Positions 5,601-51,823 of a stretch of DNA of 64,000 nucleotides are shown piece after piece. Both the position numbers and the translations under genes were made by a program. The stretch lies in NCBI GenBank assembly GCA_040752515.1, contig JBFMGQ010000013.1, forward strand, positions 4,909-68,908, in the 5' to 3' direction. This DNA comes from Bacteroidota bacterium (GTDB lineage Bacteria > Bacteroidota > Bacteroidia > Bacteroidales > Tenuifilaceae). Each line of letters opens with the position of its first letter. Positions within the stretch are counted from its first letter, which is position 1. The notes under the pieces were generated by a model. The model worked only from the letters and a program-made list of their open reading frames with translations, was not told the origin of the DNA and did no database searches.

Positions 5601-6010
5601 AGGATGGTATGGACATTGCCATATATATTATTGACGAGGAAACCCAAACCCTTCAGTTTGCCGGAGCAAACAATCCTCTTATTCTGATTCGGAATAATGA
5701 GTTGACCCACATCAAAGGCGATAAGATGCCTATTGGTATCCACCTCCGTGGCGAGTTGTCGTTTACCAATAACGTGATACAAATCCAGAAAGGTGATGTA
5801 ATCTATACATTCTCCGACGGGTATGTCGATCAGTTTGGCGGTGGCGATGGTCGTAAGTTTATGATTAAACACTTTAAGGAGCTGCTCCTCGAAATCCACC
5901 AGAAACCAATGAGTGAGCAAAAAATCATTCTTGATGAAACATTACGGAATTGGCATGGCGATACCCCAAGAATAGATGACGTTGTGGTTATGGGTGTACG
6001 GATTGTTTAA
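2696..6010 (+). CDS. Membrane sensor phosphatase: periplasmic beta-propeller + Y_Y_Y + TM + coiled coil + SpoIIE/PP2C (SiaA-like output domain)
   Basis: Propeller repeats (CVTQDNRGVMYFGT), YTNLSEGKYTFHVKA, PPWY+TM, PRDIVSGDFY, DCTGHGVPG, DGMD, SDGYVDQFGG, RIDD. Confidence 0.9.
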   Translation: MKKLLFLALLALMAFQANTQTFNRFGYPLITNYTPEVYGGNEQVWCVTQDNRGVMYFGTNDNGILEYDGKTWTIITIPENKSVRSLCKGDDGVIYVGSTGEFGYLEPDNSGKLHYTSLLNLVPDSVRSNLSYIYKTYWHDGKVYFCSLSYVFIYNGKTVKSISLGKQSEYANFFTLEANNRFYVNSYLKGLRTFINDSTLSLLPEGQAFIQKNVFSIVGLSSNTILLFTDVGFYTFTNGKVESVDTPTRLAKRMANESAIPYSAIKLNDGNIAIGVVQSDWLGVVELSPDMKPIALVNKGIGMHAGQVSEVFQNGDAPLWATLYDGGIAKVELNSAIGKFGQESGLSEIIIDIVRFNNTIYLATFNGVFYLTYDSKGVPKFIPVDGINGNVWALTIFSPPNAPKMLLAGSYTDGVFEIKGSKAINISTPLIERLGLSQQIQHKCFALYPSKYKPGRLYIGLDSGVAFMDWVNGEWKNTDNLFRDSIRFEIRSIIEDSKGNLWLASGSSGLYMVTPNFDRVLTFGKESIPGLENLQYINLLFDGDSLNILTANGIYHFNYNSNLFQPGGLVNSAFSKRFGIYKATKVSNGYAFLCYDSNNKNWIERVVKDSAGNWVTDSRDLKRLPNKWADAIYADPDGTLWIGMSKELYVYNPHVKRSFNAPFRAVIREVVSKDSLLFGGAFYTQGDSSVRKLSLEQQPYQMPRLGYHYNAMVFTFAAPYFEREEDIVYSHYLEGSDETTWSPWDKRTEATYTNLSEGKYTFHVKAKNIYGDESVEATYSFEIRPPWYRTIWAFMLYFILFVFLVWGIVKWNTRRLIAEKERLEQIVRERTAEVVAQKEEIEQQKEKIAAQNEEITSSIQYASRIQSALLTPTDQVNRIFPENFILYLPRDIVSGDFYYITQVGKLKISVVADCTGHGVPGGFMSMLGISFLTQIIGTKTDLKANEVLNELRTLVITALHQTGEIGGSKDGMDIAIYIIDEETQTLQFAGANNPLILIRNNELTHIKGDKMPIGIHLRGELSFTNNVIQIQKGDVIYTFSDGYVDQFGGGDGRKFMIKHFKELLLEIHQKPMSEQKIILDETLRNWHGDTPRIDDVVVMGVRIV

Positions 6011-8529
6011 TCGGTCAGATTTTCTATTACCTCCTCCACTTCACTTATAAAGCCCTTGATTCTTCGGTTTAACCTTTCCATGTATAGGCTGGCCGCCTTG
6101 TGCTTGTCGGGGGGAAGCGTTTCGATTCGTTGAAGGATACTGGCAATATCGTAAATCCTAAACTGGTTAAAAGCCGATTTCATCTTATGGGCAACAGCCG
6201 ATGCCTTCTTAATATTCTTGCTTTTGATATGTTGATTTAGCTCTTCAATGTTCTTTCGGGTATTATCAAGTAACGATTCCAGAATTAGCTTAACGGATTC
6301 TTTATTCCCTCCAGTAAACCTGTATAGCTCATCAATATCAAATTTATCTGAAGCTGTGGATTTATCCTTTTTATCGGACATATCGTTTGGTGTAATACCT
6401 ATAACCGGGCTAAGAAGTCGCAAAAGGTCAATTTCGGTAAAGGGCTTGATTAGATACCCTGAGAATCCCATATTGCTGAAATGTTCAGGATTATCAACCA
6501 TATCGTTTGCCGTAATGGCAAAAACCGGAATGGCATAGCCGGCATTTTCAATGAGCTGAACAACCTCATAGCCCGACACCTCTGGCATTTGAATGTCGGT
6601 TATCACAGCATCGTACCTTTTTGCATTTAAATGGTCGACCAGATTCCTGGCGTCGCCAATGGTATCAACCTGTAAACCAATATTATTGGCTATTTCGCTT
6701 ATAATAAGGCGGTTAACCTCATCATCATCAATAATTAAAATGGTTGTTCCAGGTTTTATTCTGTAATGGTTTTCTAGTTCCGAATCGGCTGCTTGCATTT
6801 CTCTTATACTATATGGGATTACCACCCTAATTATGGTGCCTTCGTTTGGCTCGCTGGTAAGCGAAATTTCACCACCCTGCAGTTCAACTAACTTTTTAAC
6901 AATGGTTAGCCCTAATCCTGTGCCCCCAAACCTGCGCGATATTCCACTATCGGCTTGGGTGAACTCCTCAAATATTTGCGATTGCATTTCGGGCGGGATG
7001 CCAATACCTGTGTCGGCAACAGTGAATTGGATTTTAACCGATTCATCGGTTTTTCGAAGCACAGCAGCCGATATAATAATGCTACCCTGATTGGTGAACT
7101 TAATGGCATTGCTAAGTAGGTTAATAAGCACTTGTCTTAGCCTAAAATCGTCGCCTGTTACATATTCGGGTAACGACTGGTCGATATTCGGAAGGACATG
7201 AAGTTCCTTTTCGGTTGCTTTAAGCTCAAAAAGCTTAACCACATCGTCAACCACATCGCGTGGCGAAAATACTCTACTTTCCAGTCGAAGTTTTCCGGTG
7301 GCCAACTTTGAGTAATCCAAAATATCGTTTATAACCGCCATTAAGTGGTTCGATGAGTTGCCTAGCACGTCAACGTATTCTTTTTGCTTGTTGCTCAATT
7401 CCGTTTTTGCTAGCTGACGCGAAATACCTACGATAGCGCTCAATGGCGAACGGATCTCATGGCTCATGTTGGCAAGGAATTGCTCTTTCAACCGCAGCAG
7501 ATTCTCGGCATACTGTTTGGCTTCAATAAGCTGTGCATTGTATGTAGTATTGCGCGATATATCACGCATGATTATGGCCAAAAGTATAACCAGCGCAATA
7601 AATGTAATGGTACCGAGCAGTAGTATTTTGAGTAATGTTTTTGCCAAAACCTCTTGAACGGTTAGGGATTGGGTGATATACTCTGCCTGTTCCTGTTTCT
7701 CGATGCTTGAAACAATAAGTTGAACTTGATTTAGAATGGCCCTGTTCCTGTTAAGCAGCTCTTTCTCCTTTTCGTCGAGCAGCTTAAGCTGATTCTGTTG
7801 ATCGGCTCTAATATTGTCCAGTATGAGTAAAAGTCTTTGGATAATTGAGTCCGATATGTATGAGATATTCGGAATGGTATCGTACGAGTACTCAATTAGA
7901 GTGTCGGTTTTTATGGTATCAATTTTTTCAGGGCCAAGGAAAAAACGCTTGATTCTGGTGGACATCGATGCATTATCGTTTTTTTTGTAGATAACCGTGT
8001 CCCGTTTTAGCTGGGTTACCGTTTTTTGTTTGTAGATCTGGTTATAGCGTTGAGTCTCCGATCCTGCCTTGGCAATTCGTTGCATTGCTTTGTCATAAAA
8101 AATACTTGTGCTAATAATTTGTCGCATCTGGAGTATTTCGCCTTCAATTTCCCTTTTGTTTTGGAGCAATTTCTCAATCTTTCTGATTGAGTTCAGCTGC
8201 GATGGGTTATTGTAGGCAAGCTTTTGAAGCGATTTTAAGGCTGCTGTTACTTTTTGGTGGTTGTTGTTATAGGTTTTAAGGTAATCGCCGTTTGATGTTA
8301 GCACATACATCCTGAAATCGCTATCCTCGGTATAGATTGATGTGATAAGCCTATTCAGCACTGTGATTTTTTGACCGGGTAGGCCAAATCCCTCTCGGGT
8401 TGTTTTAAGGTCGCTAACCCCCCGGTAGGTCATAATGATTGCCGAAACCGAGAAAATAATAATCAGCAAAAAGCCCCCAATAACCTTTGGCTTTATCCAG
8501 TAGGCACGGCTTTGTATTTTTTGGAGCAT
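6007..8529 (-). CDS. Hybrid sensor histidine kinase (periplasmic sensor, HisKA, HATPase, REC, HPt)
   Basis: FLANMSHEIRSPL, NLLSNAIKFT, DTGIGI, GGTGLGL, DIQMP and C-terminal AHKMK; the ORF is open to 8601, but ATG 8529 follows a TAACTTTG element. Confidence 0.9.
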   Translation of the reverse strand: MLQKIQSRAYWIKPKVIGGFLLIIIFSVSAIIMTYRGVSDLKTTREGFGLPGQKITVLNRLITSIYTEDSDFRMYVLTSNGDYLKTYNNNHQKVTAALKSLQKLAYNNPSQLNSIRKIEKLLQNKREIEGEILQMRQIISTSIFYDKAMQRIAKAGSETQRYNQIYKQKTVTQLKRDTVIYKKNDNASMSTRIKRFFLGPEKIDTIKTDTLIEYSYDTIPNISYISDSIIQRLLLILDNIRADQQNQLKLLDEKEKELLNRNRAILNQVQLIVSSIEKQEQAEYITQSLTVQEVLAKTLLKILLLGTITFIALVILLAIIMRDISRNTTYNAQLIEAKQYAENLLRLKEQFLANMSHEIRSPLSAIVGISRQLAKTELSNKQKEYVDVLGNSSNHLMAVINDILDYSKLATGKLRLESRVFSPRDVVDDVVKLFELKATEKELHVLPNIDQSLPEYVTGDDFRLRQVLINLLSNAIKFTNQGSIIISAAVLRKTDESVKIQFTVADTGIGIPPEMQSQIFEEFTQADSGISRRFGGTGLGLTIVKKLVELQGGEISLTSEPNEGTIIRVVIPYSIREMQAADSELENHYRIKPGTTILIIDDDEVNRLIISEIANNIGLQVDTIGDARNLVDHLNAKRYDAVITDIQMPEVSGYEVVQLIENAGYAIPVFAITANDMVDNPEHFSNMGFSGYLIKPFTEIDLLRLLSPVIGITPNDMSDKKDKSTASDKFDIDELYRFTGGNKESVKLILESLLDNTRKNIEELNQHIKSKNIKKASAVAHKMKSAFNQFRIYDIASILQRIETLPPDKHKAASLYMERLNRRIKGFISEVEEVIENLTD

Positions 8530-8547
8530 TTGATCGTAATTAACAAC

Positions 8548-8555
8548 CAAAGTTA
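8548..8555 (-). promoter_or_regulatory. Bacteroidetes sigma-A -7 element for the hybrid kinase
   Basis: Minus strand TAACTTTG matches TAnnTTTG, 19 nt upstream of the ATG. Confidence 0.55.
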
Positions 8556-8716
8556 AGCCCAAATTTGTCAATTGAAAAAAAATTGACAAATCGACCATCA
8601 AAATCTTTCAATCCGAAACTTCGGCGCTAAAGATTTTGATAAGTCTGGATTACCTCCGATAAGTCAATAGAAACAAGGTATTTAATTTTTTTTGTGTTTC
8701 TATTGACTAATCTCGG
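8550..8716 (-). repeat. ~165-bp palindrome-rich intergenic element, copy 1 (second copy at 50170-50334, +)
   Basis: The reverse complement aligns collinearly with 50170-50334; contains three inverted repeats. Confidence 0.85.
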
Positions 8717-8747
8717 TTTAAAAAAACTAGTCTTTGATTTTGGCAAC

Positions 8748-8771
8748 AAAAAAGCCGAACCACTGTTCGGC
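8748..8771 (-). terminator. Intrinsic terminator of the 8792-9916 gene
   Basis: aaaaaa-gccgaac-cact-gttcggc. Confidence 0.75.
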
Positions 8772-8791: not shown

Positions 8792-9916
8792 CTACCTTGA
8801 GTACCACGAAATACCTAAACTTATTGAAATAAACATTGGCGTATCGCCTACAGGGGGGAGGACAAAGAATGAGAATTTGGTTTTAGGCAAGGGAGCTAAC
8901 TTATTCATGGTTGCAGTGAAATTTGAAAACTCAAAATCTACTCCAAAACCACCAAGGTTAAAGCTGGCATTTGTGTCGCTGCTATAGTCGGTTTGCGTGG
9001 TGTTAATTGGGGCAGGAAGTGTTATGGTAGAGGCTGTTGAAACAAAATTTAGAGTGAGCGATGGTCGGTATTTAAAAGTTAGTGCAACCCCTTTCCAATT
9101 TCCGGGGTCAAGAAATTTACCAATTCCCAAAGTCCAACCTAGATTTACTGCAATAGGGTAAGAGAGCGTAAGTACTGACATATCCATGCTACCCCCACCT
9201 GAAATATTCATATCCAATTTGTAACGGTAAAGCAGAACATCCATTCCCCACCCATAAATGAAGCTGTTCCAAGTAGAAATGCCAGTCTTGTACTCAGGTA
9301 TTTTAAGGTTAAGCCAATTAGTTGCAAGAGAAACACCACCACCATAACCATCAACCCGGGTATCGAAGTCTTTCAAGTCCATGCCAAAATAGGTGCCGGT
9401 AAGCAGAACCGATTCGTTTTTAATTTTACCTCCTCTTGCCAACCACTCCTGCCTTATGGCTTCCGATTCATCAATTTTCTGAATGGTGAAACCAACTGCC
9501 TTGCCGTCTTTATCAATCTTAAAGTTAGTTTCTCCTTCTGCATTAACGGTATCAGCTTTTTGGATTACCTCTCCTACTGCCAACTCTTTCCCCTCGAGGA
9601 GTTTTAAGTAAATACCCTTGAAATCAAAACCAGTTTCAAAAACATACTTCTCGCTGGGAATTGCTCTTAATCGGTACGATTGACGAACACCACCAGCAGC
9701 AGCCTCAATCAGTAAAGGCTTGCTGTAATCGTGAGGAACAATAACTGAAATTTCGCTACCGTTTTTTAGGATGTACTCATTGTCGTTAATAATAATACGT
9801 AATTTAGCAGCCGATCCTTGAAATTTCGAAGGTCTAATGAATTTGATGGTAACACCTTCCTGTGCATTTAATGCTTGGCAGGCAAACATAATAAGCATAA
9901 ATAGTAGTTTTTTCAT
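8792..9916 (-). CDS. Hypothetical exported/outer-membrane protein (small N-terminal beta domain, beta-strand-rich C-terminus)
   Basis: Signal peptide MKKLLFMLIMFACQALNA; amphipathic strands ending ISISLGISWYSR. Confidence 0.55.
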   Translation of the reverse strand: MKKLLFMLIMFACQALNAQEGVTIKFIRPSKFQGSAAKLRIIINDNEYILKNGSEISVIVPHDYSKPLLIEAAAGGVRQSYRLRAIPSEKYVFETGFDFKGIYLKLLEGKELAVGEVIQKADTVNAEGETNFKIDKDGKAVGFTIQKIDESEAIRQEWLARGGKIKNESVLLTGTYFGMDLKDFDTRVDGYGGGVSLATNWLNLKIPEYKTGISTWNSFIYGWGMDVLLYRYKLDMNISGGGSMDMSVLTLSYPIAVNLGWTLGIGKFLDPGNWKGVALTFKYRPSLTLNFVSTASTITLPAPINTTQTDYSSDTNASFNLGGFGVDFEFSNFTATMNKLAPLPKTKFSFFVLPPVGDTPMFISISLGISWYSR

Positions 9917-26641: not shown

Positions 26642-26713
26642 TTTGAGGAGTTTGGCTTATTGTCACCAAATATAAACATTTTTTGCAAGCGCAAGGACTA
26701 CTATTAAACCTAA

Positions 26714-26747
26714 ATTCGTCAATTTAATTTTTCAATTGGTGAATTTG
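26714..26747 (+). promoter_or_regulatory. Motif TTCGTCAA-N10-CAATTGGTGAATTTG, related to the distal part of the 165-bp element
   Basis: Same blocks and spacing as 50292-50324. Confidence 0.45.
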
Positions 26748-26756
26748 CAATAAAGC

Positions 26757-26787
26757 AAAAAGGCTATCCTTTATGGGGATAGCCTTT
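26757..26787 (-). terminator. Terminator of the galactoside operon
   Basis: aaaggctatcc...ggatagccttt. Confidence 0.85.
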
Positions 26788-26809
26788 ACAAGAAAAGAAA
26801 ACCTAACCC

Positions 26810-48395: not shown

Positions 48396-50090
48396 CTATT
48401 TACCGGCTAATTTTGCCCAGGTATCTTTCAGCGTTACAGTTCTGTTGAACACCAGATGTTCAGGAGTTGAATCGTAATCAACACAGAAGTAACCAAGGCG
48501 CTCAAACTGGAACTTATCCAAATGCTTTGCGTGTTTAAGCGATGGCTCCAGATATCCCTCAATTACTTTGAGCGATTCCGGATTGAGCGACGATTTCCAA
48601 TCCTGTCCTTCAGGAACATCATCGGGGTCGGGTTTGGAGAATAGCCTATCGAACAAACGGATTTCGGCTTTAATAGCGTGAGGTATGGAAACCCAGTGAA
48701 TTGTTCCCTGAACCTTTCGCCCGTCGGGCGAATTACCACCGCGTGATGCCGGATCGTAGGTGCAACGTAACTCAATAGTGTTGCCCTGAGCATCCTTAAT
48801 CACCTCCTCGCACTTGATGAAGTAAGCGTAACGCAGGCGTACTTCCTGACCGGGTGCAAGGCGGAAAAACTTTTTGGGGGGATTTTCCATGAAGTCGTCG
48901 CGCTCAATGTAAAGTTCACGGCTGAAAGGAACCATTCGCTTACCAGCCGATTCGTCTTCGGGGTTGTTAATGGCTTCAAGTTCTTCAACCTGGCCTTCGG
49001 GGTAGTTGGTGATAACCACCTTTAGGGGGTTAAGAACTGCCATACGGCGCTCAGCGCGCTTGTTTAGATCTTCGCGGATACAGAATTCAAGTAACGATAA
49101 ATCGATAACGTTATCGCGTTTAGCCACGCCAACCTTATCGGCAAAGTAACGGATAGCTTCAGGGGTATACCCCCTACGGCGTAAGCCACAAATGGTTGGC
49201 ATTCGGGGGTCATCCCAGCCCATTACCACCTTTTCCTGAACCAGTTGCAAAAGCTTACGTTTACTCATTACTGTATAGGAGAGGTTCAGGCGAGCAAACT
49301 CGTACTGTTTTGAAGGGAAAATCTCCAATTTCTCAATGAACCAATCGTATAGCGGGCGATGGACATCGAACTCGAGGGTACAAATGGAATGGGTGATTTT
49401 TTCGATGGAGTCCGATTGCCCATGGGCGTAATCGTACATGGGGTAAATGCACCACTTGTTGCCGGTACGGTGATGTTCAGCATGAATAATGCGGTACATT
49501 ATGGGGTCGCGCATCAGCATGTTGGGGTGCGCCATGTCGATTTTAGCACGTAGTACTTTTTCGCCATCCTTAAACTCACCGGCACGCATTCGGCGGAACA
49601 GGTCAAGGTTCTCTTCCACCGAGCGGTTGCGCCAAGGGCTTTCCTTTCCGGGTTGTGTTACTGTTCCCCTATTTATTCTAATTTCTTCCTGCGACTGATC
49701 ATCAACATAGGCCAATCCTTTCTTGATTAGCAGTTCGGCCCACTGGTACAGCTGCTCAAAGTAGTCGGAAGCGTAAAACTCGTTAGCCCATTCAAAACCA
49801 AGCCATTTAATATCTTCCTTAATGGAGTTCACGTATTCCACGTCTTCCTTCACGGGATTGGTATCGTCGAAACGGAGGTTGGTTTTGCCACCGTACTTTT
49901 GTGCCAAGCCAAAGTTCAGGCATATTGATTTAGCATGACCAATATGCAGATATCCGTTGGGTTCGGGTGGGAAACGGGTAAGCACCCGGCCTCCGTGTTT
50001 TCCCGTTCGAATATCTTCCTCAATAATTTCCTCTAAAAAATTTTTAGGTCTTTCGCCGCTGTCGCCTAATGTTAACTCGTGTTCGGTCAT
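48396..50090 (-). CDS. glnS: Glutamine--tRNA ligase
   Basis: [42 protein letters not shown]. Confidence 0.97.
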
Positions 50091-50169
50091 CGCTTTTGTG
50101 TTTTTTTCAGAACCAACAAAAATAGAATTTTGTTAACAAATAGATTTTTCAAAGCATACTTTTTTTTAC

Positions 50170-50334
50170 CCGAGATTAGTCGTTAGTAACACAAATAAAA
50201 TTAAACTACCTGTTTCTATTGACTTATCCAGGCAATCCCGACTTATTAAAATCTTTCATTCCAAAGTTTCGGAAATATATTTTTTAGTGAAATCGTCAAT
50301 TGACCTTTTCAATCGACGAATTTGGGTTTACCTT
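50170..50334 (+). repeat. ~165-bp intergenic element, copy 2
   Basis: Collinear match to the reverse complement of 8550-8716. Confidence 0.85.
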
Positions 50335-50476: not shown

Positions 50477-50878
50477 TTAGTAGGTAACAAAATTAAAAGG
50501 GACTTGGGCCAATTCCGATAAATCTTCACCGGCTTCGCGGAGTTCGGAATCCTCCTTGTCGTAGTACCAGTTAATAGTTAAAGGTATTCCTGCGTTTTGG
50601 ATTTGGTTAAGGCTAATGATGATATCGTATAGGAATTTCGCTGACGACGAGTTAAAGTAAACCAGTTTGAATTGAAATTCTATAGGCTGAATATTTTCAC
50701 CTTTGCTGTTTTTTTCTAAAAGTTCCTTACTATAGCTATCAAGCCAATCTAGAATAGGGATATAAAAATCTCTTACATTTTCGGGGCGTGAGTAACCCGA
50801 AATGGTCAATATATTCACACTGGGGTTAAAGTCAATTTGTGGAGTTGCGTTGCTTGATTTTAAAACTAATGGGTTCAT
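50477..50878 (-). CDS. siaC: SiaC/DUF1987 regulatory phosphoprotein
   Basis: NATPQIDF, GYSRPENV, LVYFNSSSAK, INWYYD. Confidence 0.85.
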   Translation of the reverse strand: MNPLVLKSSNATPQIDFNPSVNILTISGYSRPENVRDFYIPILDWLDSYSKELLEKNSKGENIQPIEFQFKLVYFNSSSAKFLYDIIISLNQIQNAGIPLTINWYYDKEDSELREAGEDLSELAQVPFNFVTY

Positions 50879-50888
50879 TCTGATCAAT

Positions 50889-51299
50889 TTACGTATTAGG
50901 CGTTATTGGAATAAAGTTGAACGGGAAATTAATCATCTCCGATATCTCTTCACCTGATTCAAATATCTCATCATCGTCTTCGTCGTAGTACCAGTTAATT
51001 TCAACGGCGTTACCTTTGGAGTGGAACTTCATGAAAACCATAAGGATATCCATAAGGAACTTTGAAGAAGCTGAGTTGAAGTAGGTGAGCTTCAGGTTCA
51101 GTACAAGGTTACTCTTGTTAAAGTTTGTGTTCTTGGCAAGTACATTTTCCTCGTAATCTTCAAGCCATTTAATAAGTGGTTTATAGAAACCAACAGTGTT
51201 TTCGGGCCTTGAAAAACCTGAGATTTCGAAAACCGAATTATCGGGATCGAAAAAAACTCGGGGTGTAAATTCGCTGGGCTCTATGTATAATGGTTCCAT
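50889..51299 (-). CDS. siaC: SiaC/DUF1987 regulatory phosphoprotein
   Basis: EFTPRVFFD, GFSRPEN, LTYFNSASSK, INWYYDEDD. Confidence 0.85.
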   Translation of the reverse strand: MEPLYIEPSEFTPRVFFDPDNSVFEISGFSRPENTVGFYKPLIKWLEDYEENVLAKNTNFNKSNLVLNLKLTYFNSASSKFLMDILMVFMKFHSKGNAVEINWYYDEDDDEIFESGEEISEMINFPFNFIPITPNT

Positions 51300-51304
51300 G
51301 GTCA

Positions 51305-51823
51305 CTAACTGTTTTGGTTTTGAAGCGACACCTTAATTCTCAGAGTAAAGTATGTGTACTGTTCGTCAATATCTTCAAAAGAGAATTCTAACTTATTTTC
51401 GGTAACCTTAGCAATATTTATGATACCGAGACCAGCACCACCTTTCTGTGTCACATTTCCACTAAGTATAACCTCCTTGTAAAACTCTTTAAGACCAGCT
51501 TTATCGAGTTGATTGACTTTCTCCAAACGTGCTTTTAAAGTGCCCATTTTAACTTTCAGCAAAGAGTTAGAGCAACTCAAATCGACCTTGTCGTTTTCCA
51601 GTATTAGTGAAAATTTGGGCTGAAAATTATTGCTGCCCTTGATAACATCTTGATGCTTGTATATGTTCTCAAGGCTCTCGACCATGGCAGAATATACTTT
51701 CTTACGTATGATGATCCCAAAGTTGTACCGCTCAAGCAACGATGTCATCTTATTGAGCAAAAAACCTATCTCCTCGTAGGAGAGTGGACCGTAATGGTTG
51801 ATTAAAACTTCGCCTTTTTCCAC
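51305..51823 (-). CDS. siaB: SiaB family protein kinase
   Basis: VESLENIYKH, GGAGLGIINIA; directly upstream of two siaC genes. Confidence 0.85.
   Translation of the reverse strand: MEKGEVLINHYGPLSYEEIGFLLNKMTSLLERYNFGIIIRKKVYSAMVESLENIYKHQDVIKGSNNFQPKFSLILENDKVDLSCSNSLLKVKMGTLKARLEKVNQLDKAGLKEFYKEVILSGNVTQKGGAGLGIINIAKVTENKLEFSFEDIDEQYTYFTLRIKVSLQNQNS

Follow-up and report, generated by a model that had tools for sequence, protein, structure and literature searches.

Insertion sequences of the IS1380 family have ends that begin with CC, imperfect terminal repeats of about 15–17 bp and direct repeats of 4–5 bp (family-wide values, ISfinder table), and IS1380 is a bacterial relative of piggyBac. 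In Neisseria, the Correia (NEMIS) elements are MITEs of about 100–160 bp with 26-bp terminal inverted repeats; they duplicate TA, lie between genes, frequently next to the starts of genes, form long hairpins in their transcripts, and can alter neighbouring promoters. We know of no transposase partner for the Correia elements. REP and BIME sequences are modular extragenic palindromes, single or combined, that are tied to Y1 transposases. For IS1247, a member of the IS1380 family, the inverted repeats are imperfect (16/13) and the direct repeat measures 5 bp (PMC3281130, Table 2). Surrogate ends can be accepted by IS1380 transposases (PMC9330008), which also serve as outgroup to piggyBac (PMC10813416). 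In the literature, we found no described IS1380-derived MITE in Bacteroidales.

The window, that is, the whole 64,000-nt stretch of DNA analysed here, comes from an uncultured Bacteroidales bacterium whose genome assembly (G000) comprises 3.13 Mb in 63 contigs. An earlier note on this DNA had described a palindrome-rich intergenic element at 8550–8716, duplicated in inverted orientation at 50170–50334, and had read it as a structured RNA, as a portable regulatory cassette, or as a small non-autonomous element. Alignment of the two sites confirmed two collinear copies in inverted relative orientation, and narrowed their exact limits to 8558–8716 (copy 1) and 50170–50326 (copy 2). Their identity was 79% over the element, a little below the ~85% that had been estimated over the first ~90 bp. 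The three consecutive dyads reported for copy 1 were all recovered and are called hairpins A, B, and C. As to the nature of the element, the third proposal was strongly supported by terminal repeats, target duplications, empty sites, copy number, and IS1380-type ends, whereas a structured RNA gained little. We conclude with high confidence that the element is a MITE, namely a non-coding, non-autonomous derivative of the IS1380 family. The features of the window are the following:

6007–8529, minus strand: hybrid histidine kinase gene, CHASE3-HisKA-HATPase_c-REC-Hpt (Pfam scan).
8548–8555, minus strand: octamer TAACTTTG, which fits the −7 motif TAnnTTTG (alignment of G000, G003, G006, and G001).
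8553–8557, no strand: left flank TTAAG, the degraded target-site duplication of copy 1.
8558–8716, plus strand: copy 1, a full-length MITE of 159 bp with hairpins A, B, and C (nhmmer, 136 bits; alignment and end anchoring).
8558–8574, plus strand: left terminal inverted repeat of copy 1, CCCAAATTTGTCAATTG, which is also the left arm of hairpin A (12 of 17 positions match the inverted right end).
8563–8591, in copy 1: hairpin A (RNA fold).
8593–8645, plus strand: central hairpin B, ATCAAAATCTTT..CCGAA/TTCGG..AAAGATTTTGAT, with an outer CGAC/GTC extension (fold and alignment).
8658–8712, plus strand: hairpin C, GATAAGTCAATAGAAACA .. TGTTTCTATTGACTAATC (fold and alignment).
8700–8716, minus strand: right terminal inverted repeat of copy 1, with the minus-strand sequence CCGAGATTAGTCAATAG.
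8717–8721, no strand: right flank TTTAA, the duplication partner of copy 1.
26709–26749, plus strand: third family member in this stretch, degenerate and of the 41-bp mini type (left end, loop, and right end), with the flanks TTAAA and ATAAA.
48396–50090, minus strand: glnS, encoding glutaminyl-tRNA synthetase, downstream of copy 2 (Pfam).
50165–50169, minus strand: GTAAA, right copy of the exact 5-bp duplication of copy 2.
50170–50326, minus strand: copy 2, a full-length but decayed MITE of 157 bp (alignment and ends).
50327–50331, minus strand: GTAAA, left copy of the exact 5-bp duplication of copy 2.

The earlier note had regarded the element as a duplication of two copies, which turned out to be a large underestimate. 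Copy 1, used as a BLAST query against G000, matched about 30 further places. Iterated nhmmer searches of the same assembly resolved 37 distinct loci, 19 of them full-length, and a scan for the terminal motif added six mini forms of ~41 bp, giving a family of about 43 copies. All 43 are intergenic on a crude ORF map that covers 90% of G000, and many lie 30–100 bp away from gene ends. Their orientation relative to the flanking genes is unbiased (14 >>, 16 <<, 6 <>, and 6 ><). The copies in G000 are 75–88% identical, and the family looks old in this genome. No ORF of at least 60 aa is listed within copy 1 or copy 2, except for the kinase frame that touches copy 1 when read from an upstream TTG (6007–8601). 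The mini copy at 26709–26749 lies just upstream of a terminator-like hairpin at about 26762–26788.

The limits of the element were set by alignment of the 19 full-length genome copies together with their flanks, and by end anchoring; this alignment showed sharp common boundaries. The left end of the family reads CCCAAATCCGTCAATTG and the right end CTATTGACTAATCTCGG. Both start with CC, and they form 17-bp imperfect terminal inverted repeats (12/17 complementary) that are conserved at 92–95% across 33 copies. Target-site duplications, which the earlier note had suggested looking for, were present. We pooled 52 copies with both ends intact from G000 and related assemblies, and 21 of them had exact 5-bp direct repeats, versus 3.6 ± 1.7 expected from shuffled flank pairs. 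In these shuffles, the left and right flanks were swapped between copies, and the maximum in 2000 shuffles was 11 exact repeats. The duplications are copy-specific and AT-rich, including TTTAA, TTAAA, TTAAT, TTGAA, GTAAA, ATCAA, ATAAT, and ATAAA.

Copy 2 is bounded by the exact GTAAA duplication. The spacer between a SiaC-family gene and glnS measures 311 bp in G000 versus 142 bp in G003 and in G006; subtracting the element and one copy of the duplication leaves 149 bp in G000. The homology of the right flank starts exactly at the end of the element. G006 is empty at this site although it carries dozens of copies elsewhere. These observations bear on the refuting scenario of the earlier note, in which copy 2 would be a segmental duplicate, left behind as the promoter of a kinase paralogue that has since been lost. 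Its only support was the first impression of a two-copy element. Against it stand the copy number with sharp common ends, the exact duplication around copy 2, and the lack of copy 2 in the orthologous spacer of both G003 and G006, where the spacer length corresponds to that of G000 minus the element; together they effectively rule this scenario out.

The earlier note had also stated that copy 2 points at no gene, which was not the case: its right end lies 79 bp upstream of glnS. The 74-bp spacer between glnS and copy 2 (50091–50164) contains TATTTTTG and is nearly identical in G003 and G006, both of which have no element there. This suggests that glnS retains an intact promoter, which does not depend on the element. 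Directly upstream of copy 2, the window harbors two tandem SiaC-family (PF09345) genes with a DUF6272 gene before them (50477–51823, minus strand). This SiaC/DUF6272 cluster does not adjoin glnS in G001, G002, and G004; gene order varies within the genus.

The copies fall into size classes of about 41, 64, and 160 bp (full forms, 152–165 bp), which have the same ends and the same duplications. The ~41-bp form consists of the left end, a loop, and the right end, and in the ~64-bp form the left end is fused to the loop of hairpin C, followed by the right end. The core GTCAAT(T/A)G occurs four times per element, as both arms of hairpin A and both arms of hairpin C. The three dyads consist of two end modules, in each of which a terminal repeat is joined to its inverted internal copy, and of a central palindrome between them. 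Both short forms (41 and 64 bp) could have arisen from the 160-bp form, each through a single deletion between repeated ATTGAC/GTCAAT cores, and the reverse direction would also be possible.

Conservation is higher in the stems (92–97%) than in the loops (73–81%). Across 33 copies, the arms of hairpin B are conserved at ~93% and its apex at 73%, and fully compensated variants of its arms occur in L061 and L062; in hairpin C, the arms are conserved at 95–97% and the loop at 81%. The predicted folds are very stable, with −68 and −72 kcal/mol for the consensus on the two strands and −49.9 kcal/mol for copy 1 (z = −7.4 vs dinucleotide shuffles). Copy 2 folds less well (−38.4 kcal/mol, z = −3.5) because its hairpins B and C are eroded.

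Stable folds with arms better conserved than loops would also be compatible with a structured non-coding RNA gene family, or with a portable cassette for regulation (as attenuator, stabiliser or promoter module), that the host keeps for its function, mobility being secondary or past. Covariation adds some weight to this possibility: 18 cells were changed on both sides compared with 7.3 under shuffling, and in a few copies the arms are entirely rewritten but still palindromic. The covariation is modest, however, mostly confined to hairpin A and carried by few copies, and hairpin C shows none, being simply conserved. Wobble pairs gave no clear signal of a transcribed strand (26 G:U vs 55 A:C, a comparison confounded by inherited columns), and much of hairpins B and C is lost in copy 2. 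The element has no sigma-70-like promoter and no internal terminator. The Rfam check proposed in the earlier note brought no family match to the element: Rfam 15 at gathering thresholds returned only two tRNAs in the whole window. The genomic positions can be read in both ways, since many copies lie close to gene ends, as described above, and copy 1 abuts the putative −7 box of the kinase gene, whereas the orientation of the copies is unbiased, and the orthologous genes in G003 and G006 lack the element and have retained conserved promoter regions of their own. On balance, we consider a host-kept RNA or cassette to be quite unlikely. With the element taken as a MITE, the conservation of arms over loops fits a constraint on transposition-competent lineages, and a host-level hairpin function would look alike.

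The CC-tipped ends and the 5-bp duplication led us to suspect IS1380 as the parent of the MITE. Transposases of the IS1380 family scoring above the NF033539 cut-off were detected in G007 and G004, both of the same genus as G000, each within a 1.4-kb insertion sequence. The ends of these insertion sequences are CCCAAATTACGC.../CCCAAATTAAGC... beside TTAAA/TTTAA. The 7-nt tip CCCAAAT is common to the same-genus IS1380 elements and every MITE copy, and with some of them 9 nt are shared (CCCAAATTA). The CCCAAAT tip and the AT-rich flank are retained in IS1380-clade relatives from throughout the order and from metagenomes, and metagenome copies that are 99% identical to the G007 element (L145 and L146) have the exact duplications TTTAA/TTTAA and TTGAA/TTGAA. 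We found no insertion sequence with exactly the ends of the MITE (CCCAAATYCGTCAATTG); the best match was the end CCCAAATCCGTCGATAG of L222, an insertion-sequence relative on a metagenome contig, which is identical to the left end of the MITE at 15 of 17 positions.

The left ends of the insertion sequences are arranged like hairpin A of the MITE and like its 41-bp mini form, the terminal repeat being followed by a short loop and then by an internal copy in inverted orientation. In the transposase-proximal ends at L124:1412–1475, L125:2730–2791, and L222:284–330, the inverted internal copy follows 8–30 nt after the terminal repeat, resulting in a hairpin over the start of the element. Such an end hairpin may be a general feature of the Bacteroidales IS1380 clade, from which mini-MITEs could readily arise.

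The interior of the MITE had no homology to the interiors of the insertion sequences (nhmmer, E <= 10), so that the case for IS1380 as parent is based on the ends, the 5-bp target duplication, and the hairpin layout at the ends. An IS1380 transposase was absent from the G000 assembly in searches with NF033539, with the G007 protein, and with tblastn at E <= 10; the family is orphaned in this assembly, without a matching transposase. We also sought pairs of ends 1–3 kb apart in G003, G006, and G007, and all pairs were about 41, 64 or 160 bp apart. A candidate interval in G006 (L108) contained a 644-aa ORF without a Pfam match and no sign of a transposase, and was rejected.

Compared with described systems, the MITE resembles the IS1380 family (ISEcp1, IS1247, ISPme1, and the unnamed 1.4-kb Bacteroidales members) in its CC-tipped imperfect repeats of ~16–17 bp and its 5-bp duplication. 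It further shares with the Bacteroidales members the CCCAAAT tip (up to 15/17), the TTWAA-like targets, and the left-end hairpin. Unlike IS1380 elements, it has no transposase gene and measures 41–165 bp rather than ~1.4 kb. The Correia/NEMIS elements, compared by description only, are similar to the MITE in size, terminal inverted repeats, intergenic location, and hairpins, and differ from it in repeat length and target duplication; they occur in a phylum different from that of its host, and the two would not be expected to resemble each other in sequence.

A rival explanation would be extragenic palindromes of the REP/BIME type, spread by a RAYT (Y1, IS200/IS605-like) transposase. The palindromic modules of our family likewise occur singly or combined and always between genes, and G000 does encode three intact and one broken Y1_Tnp (PF01797) genes. 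However, REPs have neither terminal inverted repeats nor target duplications, whereas the copies studied here have both, the duplications being copy-specific, and their ends match IS1380-family insertion sequences. Moreover, the sole Y1 gene with flanking repeats (C8:54351–54692) sits amid a different repeat, GCCCTGAAAGGGCAG... Around all Y1 genes, we found no more of the element than one isolated fragment resembling its right end, at C23:36028, ~500 bp downstream of another Y1 gene (C23:35187–35531). We therefore regard spread by a RAYT as highly improbable.

The region around the first of these Y1 genes (L131; C8:53200–55400 of G000, outside the window) has a local repeat array on both sides of the PF01797 gene. 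GCCCTGAAAGGGCAG is matched 21 times in the array, and after every match come GTCAATTGAA and a hairpin of the form CCCAACGC..GCGTTGGG; the whole looks like a RAYT with its own REP cluster. The L131 repeat and the MITE have the octamer GTCAATTG in common, probably by chance.

Copy 1 was reported in the earlier note to run into the promoter of the hybrid kinase gene, and this was borne out. The kinase ATG at 8529 is 28 bp from the left end of copy 1. Between them lies the octamer TAACTTTG, which we take to match the Bacteroidota/Bacteroides −7 promoter consensus TAnnTTTG and thus to mark a putative promoter. The octamer is kept in all four aligned genomes (G000, G003, G006, and G001; in G001 as TAATTTTG), and its conservation extends to relatives without the element. 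As copy 1 begins 2 nt upstream of this box, the upstream promoter sequence of the kinase gene is now all MITE DNA. By this alignment, copy 1 has replaced everything upstream of the conserved −7 box (beyond about −16).

The target duplication of copy 1 is imperfect (TTAAG vs TTTAA). About 25 bp beside the left end of copy 1 are missing in G000 and kept in G003 and G006, and a loss of this left flank in G000 would explain the imperfect repeat. The element is absent from this site in G003 and G001. G006 has a copy near the same spot, in the same orientation and with a homologous right flank; compared with copy 1, it lies 27 bp further from the kinase gene and is of a different loop subtype. Copy 1 and the G006 copy are either one ancestral insertion or two independent ones. 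Upstream of copy 1, a 374-aa ORF (8792–9916, minus strand) matched no Pfam family at E <= 0.001, and it ends in a GC-rich hairpin (8754–8771) with T-runs on both strands.

Hairpin A differs between the two large copies by a paired change, TTGTC..GACAA in copy 1 and TCGTC..GACGA in copy 2. The earlier note was right that the change keeps the symmetry, but it had taken copy 2 to be the changed copy. The family consensus, CCGTC..GACGA, indicates that copy 1 holds the derived state; hairpin A of copy 1 carries a derived CG-to-TA change with its symmetry preserved.

Effects of the MITE copies on neighbouring genes are incidental in our interpretation. There is a small but appreciable chance that some copies have been recruited by the host as promoter or leader modules, in which case the strong conservation of all six hairpin arms over the loops could be due to a host protein that binds the four GTCAAT(T/A)G cores, or to control at the RNA level, and not to transposase recognition alone.

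The distribution of the family is patchy. Among seven other same-genus genomes searched, three carry it, and a search of 33 genomes from further genera and families of the same order gave no match. A pattern scan of a public species collection recovered true members in five uncultured Bacteroidales assemblies only. Two pattern matches in Treponemataceae and Clostridiaceae MAGs were unrelated palindromes and were not counted as family members. These sites, L078:3844–3898 and L102:2670–2709, are isolated perfect palindromes, TGTCAATAGAAAC...GTTTCTATTGACA, and not copies of the MITE; they may be operator sites in which the arm of hairpin C recurs by chance.

We propose the following mechanism for the spread of the MITE. 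An IS1380-type DDE transposase supplied in trans would bind the two CC-tipped terminal repeats, CCCAAATCCGTCAATTG and the inverted CCGAGATTAGTCAATAG, and would probably also recognise the internal inverted GTCAAT(T/A)G cores that form hairpins A and C. It would then insert the element into AT-rich TTWAA-like sites, duplicating 5 bp. The use of surrogate ends by IS1380 transposases would provide a plausible route from an end hairpin to an independent mini element.

The MITE family explains dozens of palindrome-rich intergenic stretches in this uncultured digester Bacteroidales genus, and its recognition in annotation prevents the copies from being mistaken for small RNAs, operators or duplicated promoters. 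The nested size variants of 41, 64, and 160 bp could help to define the minimal ends for an IS1380-type transposase, and at the hybrid sensor kinase gene, copy 1 amounts to a natural experiment on the replacement of a promoter.
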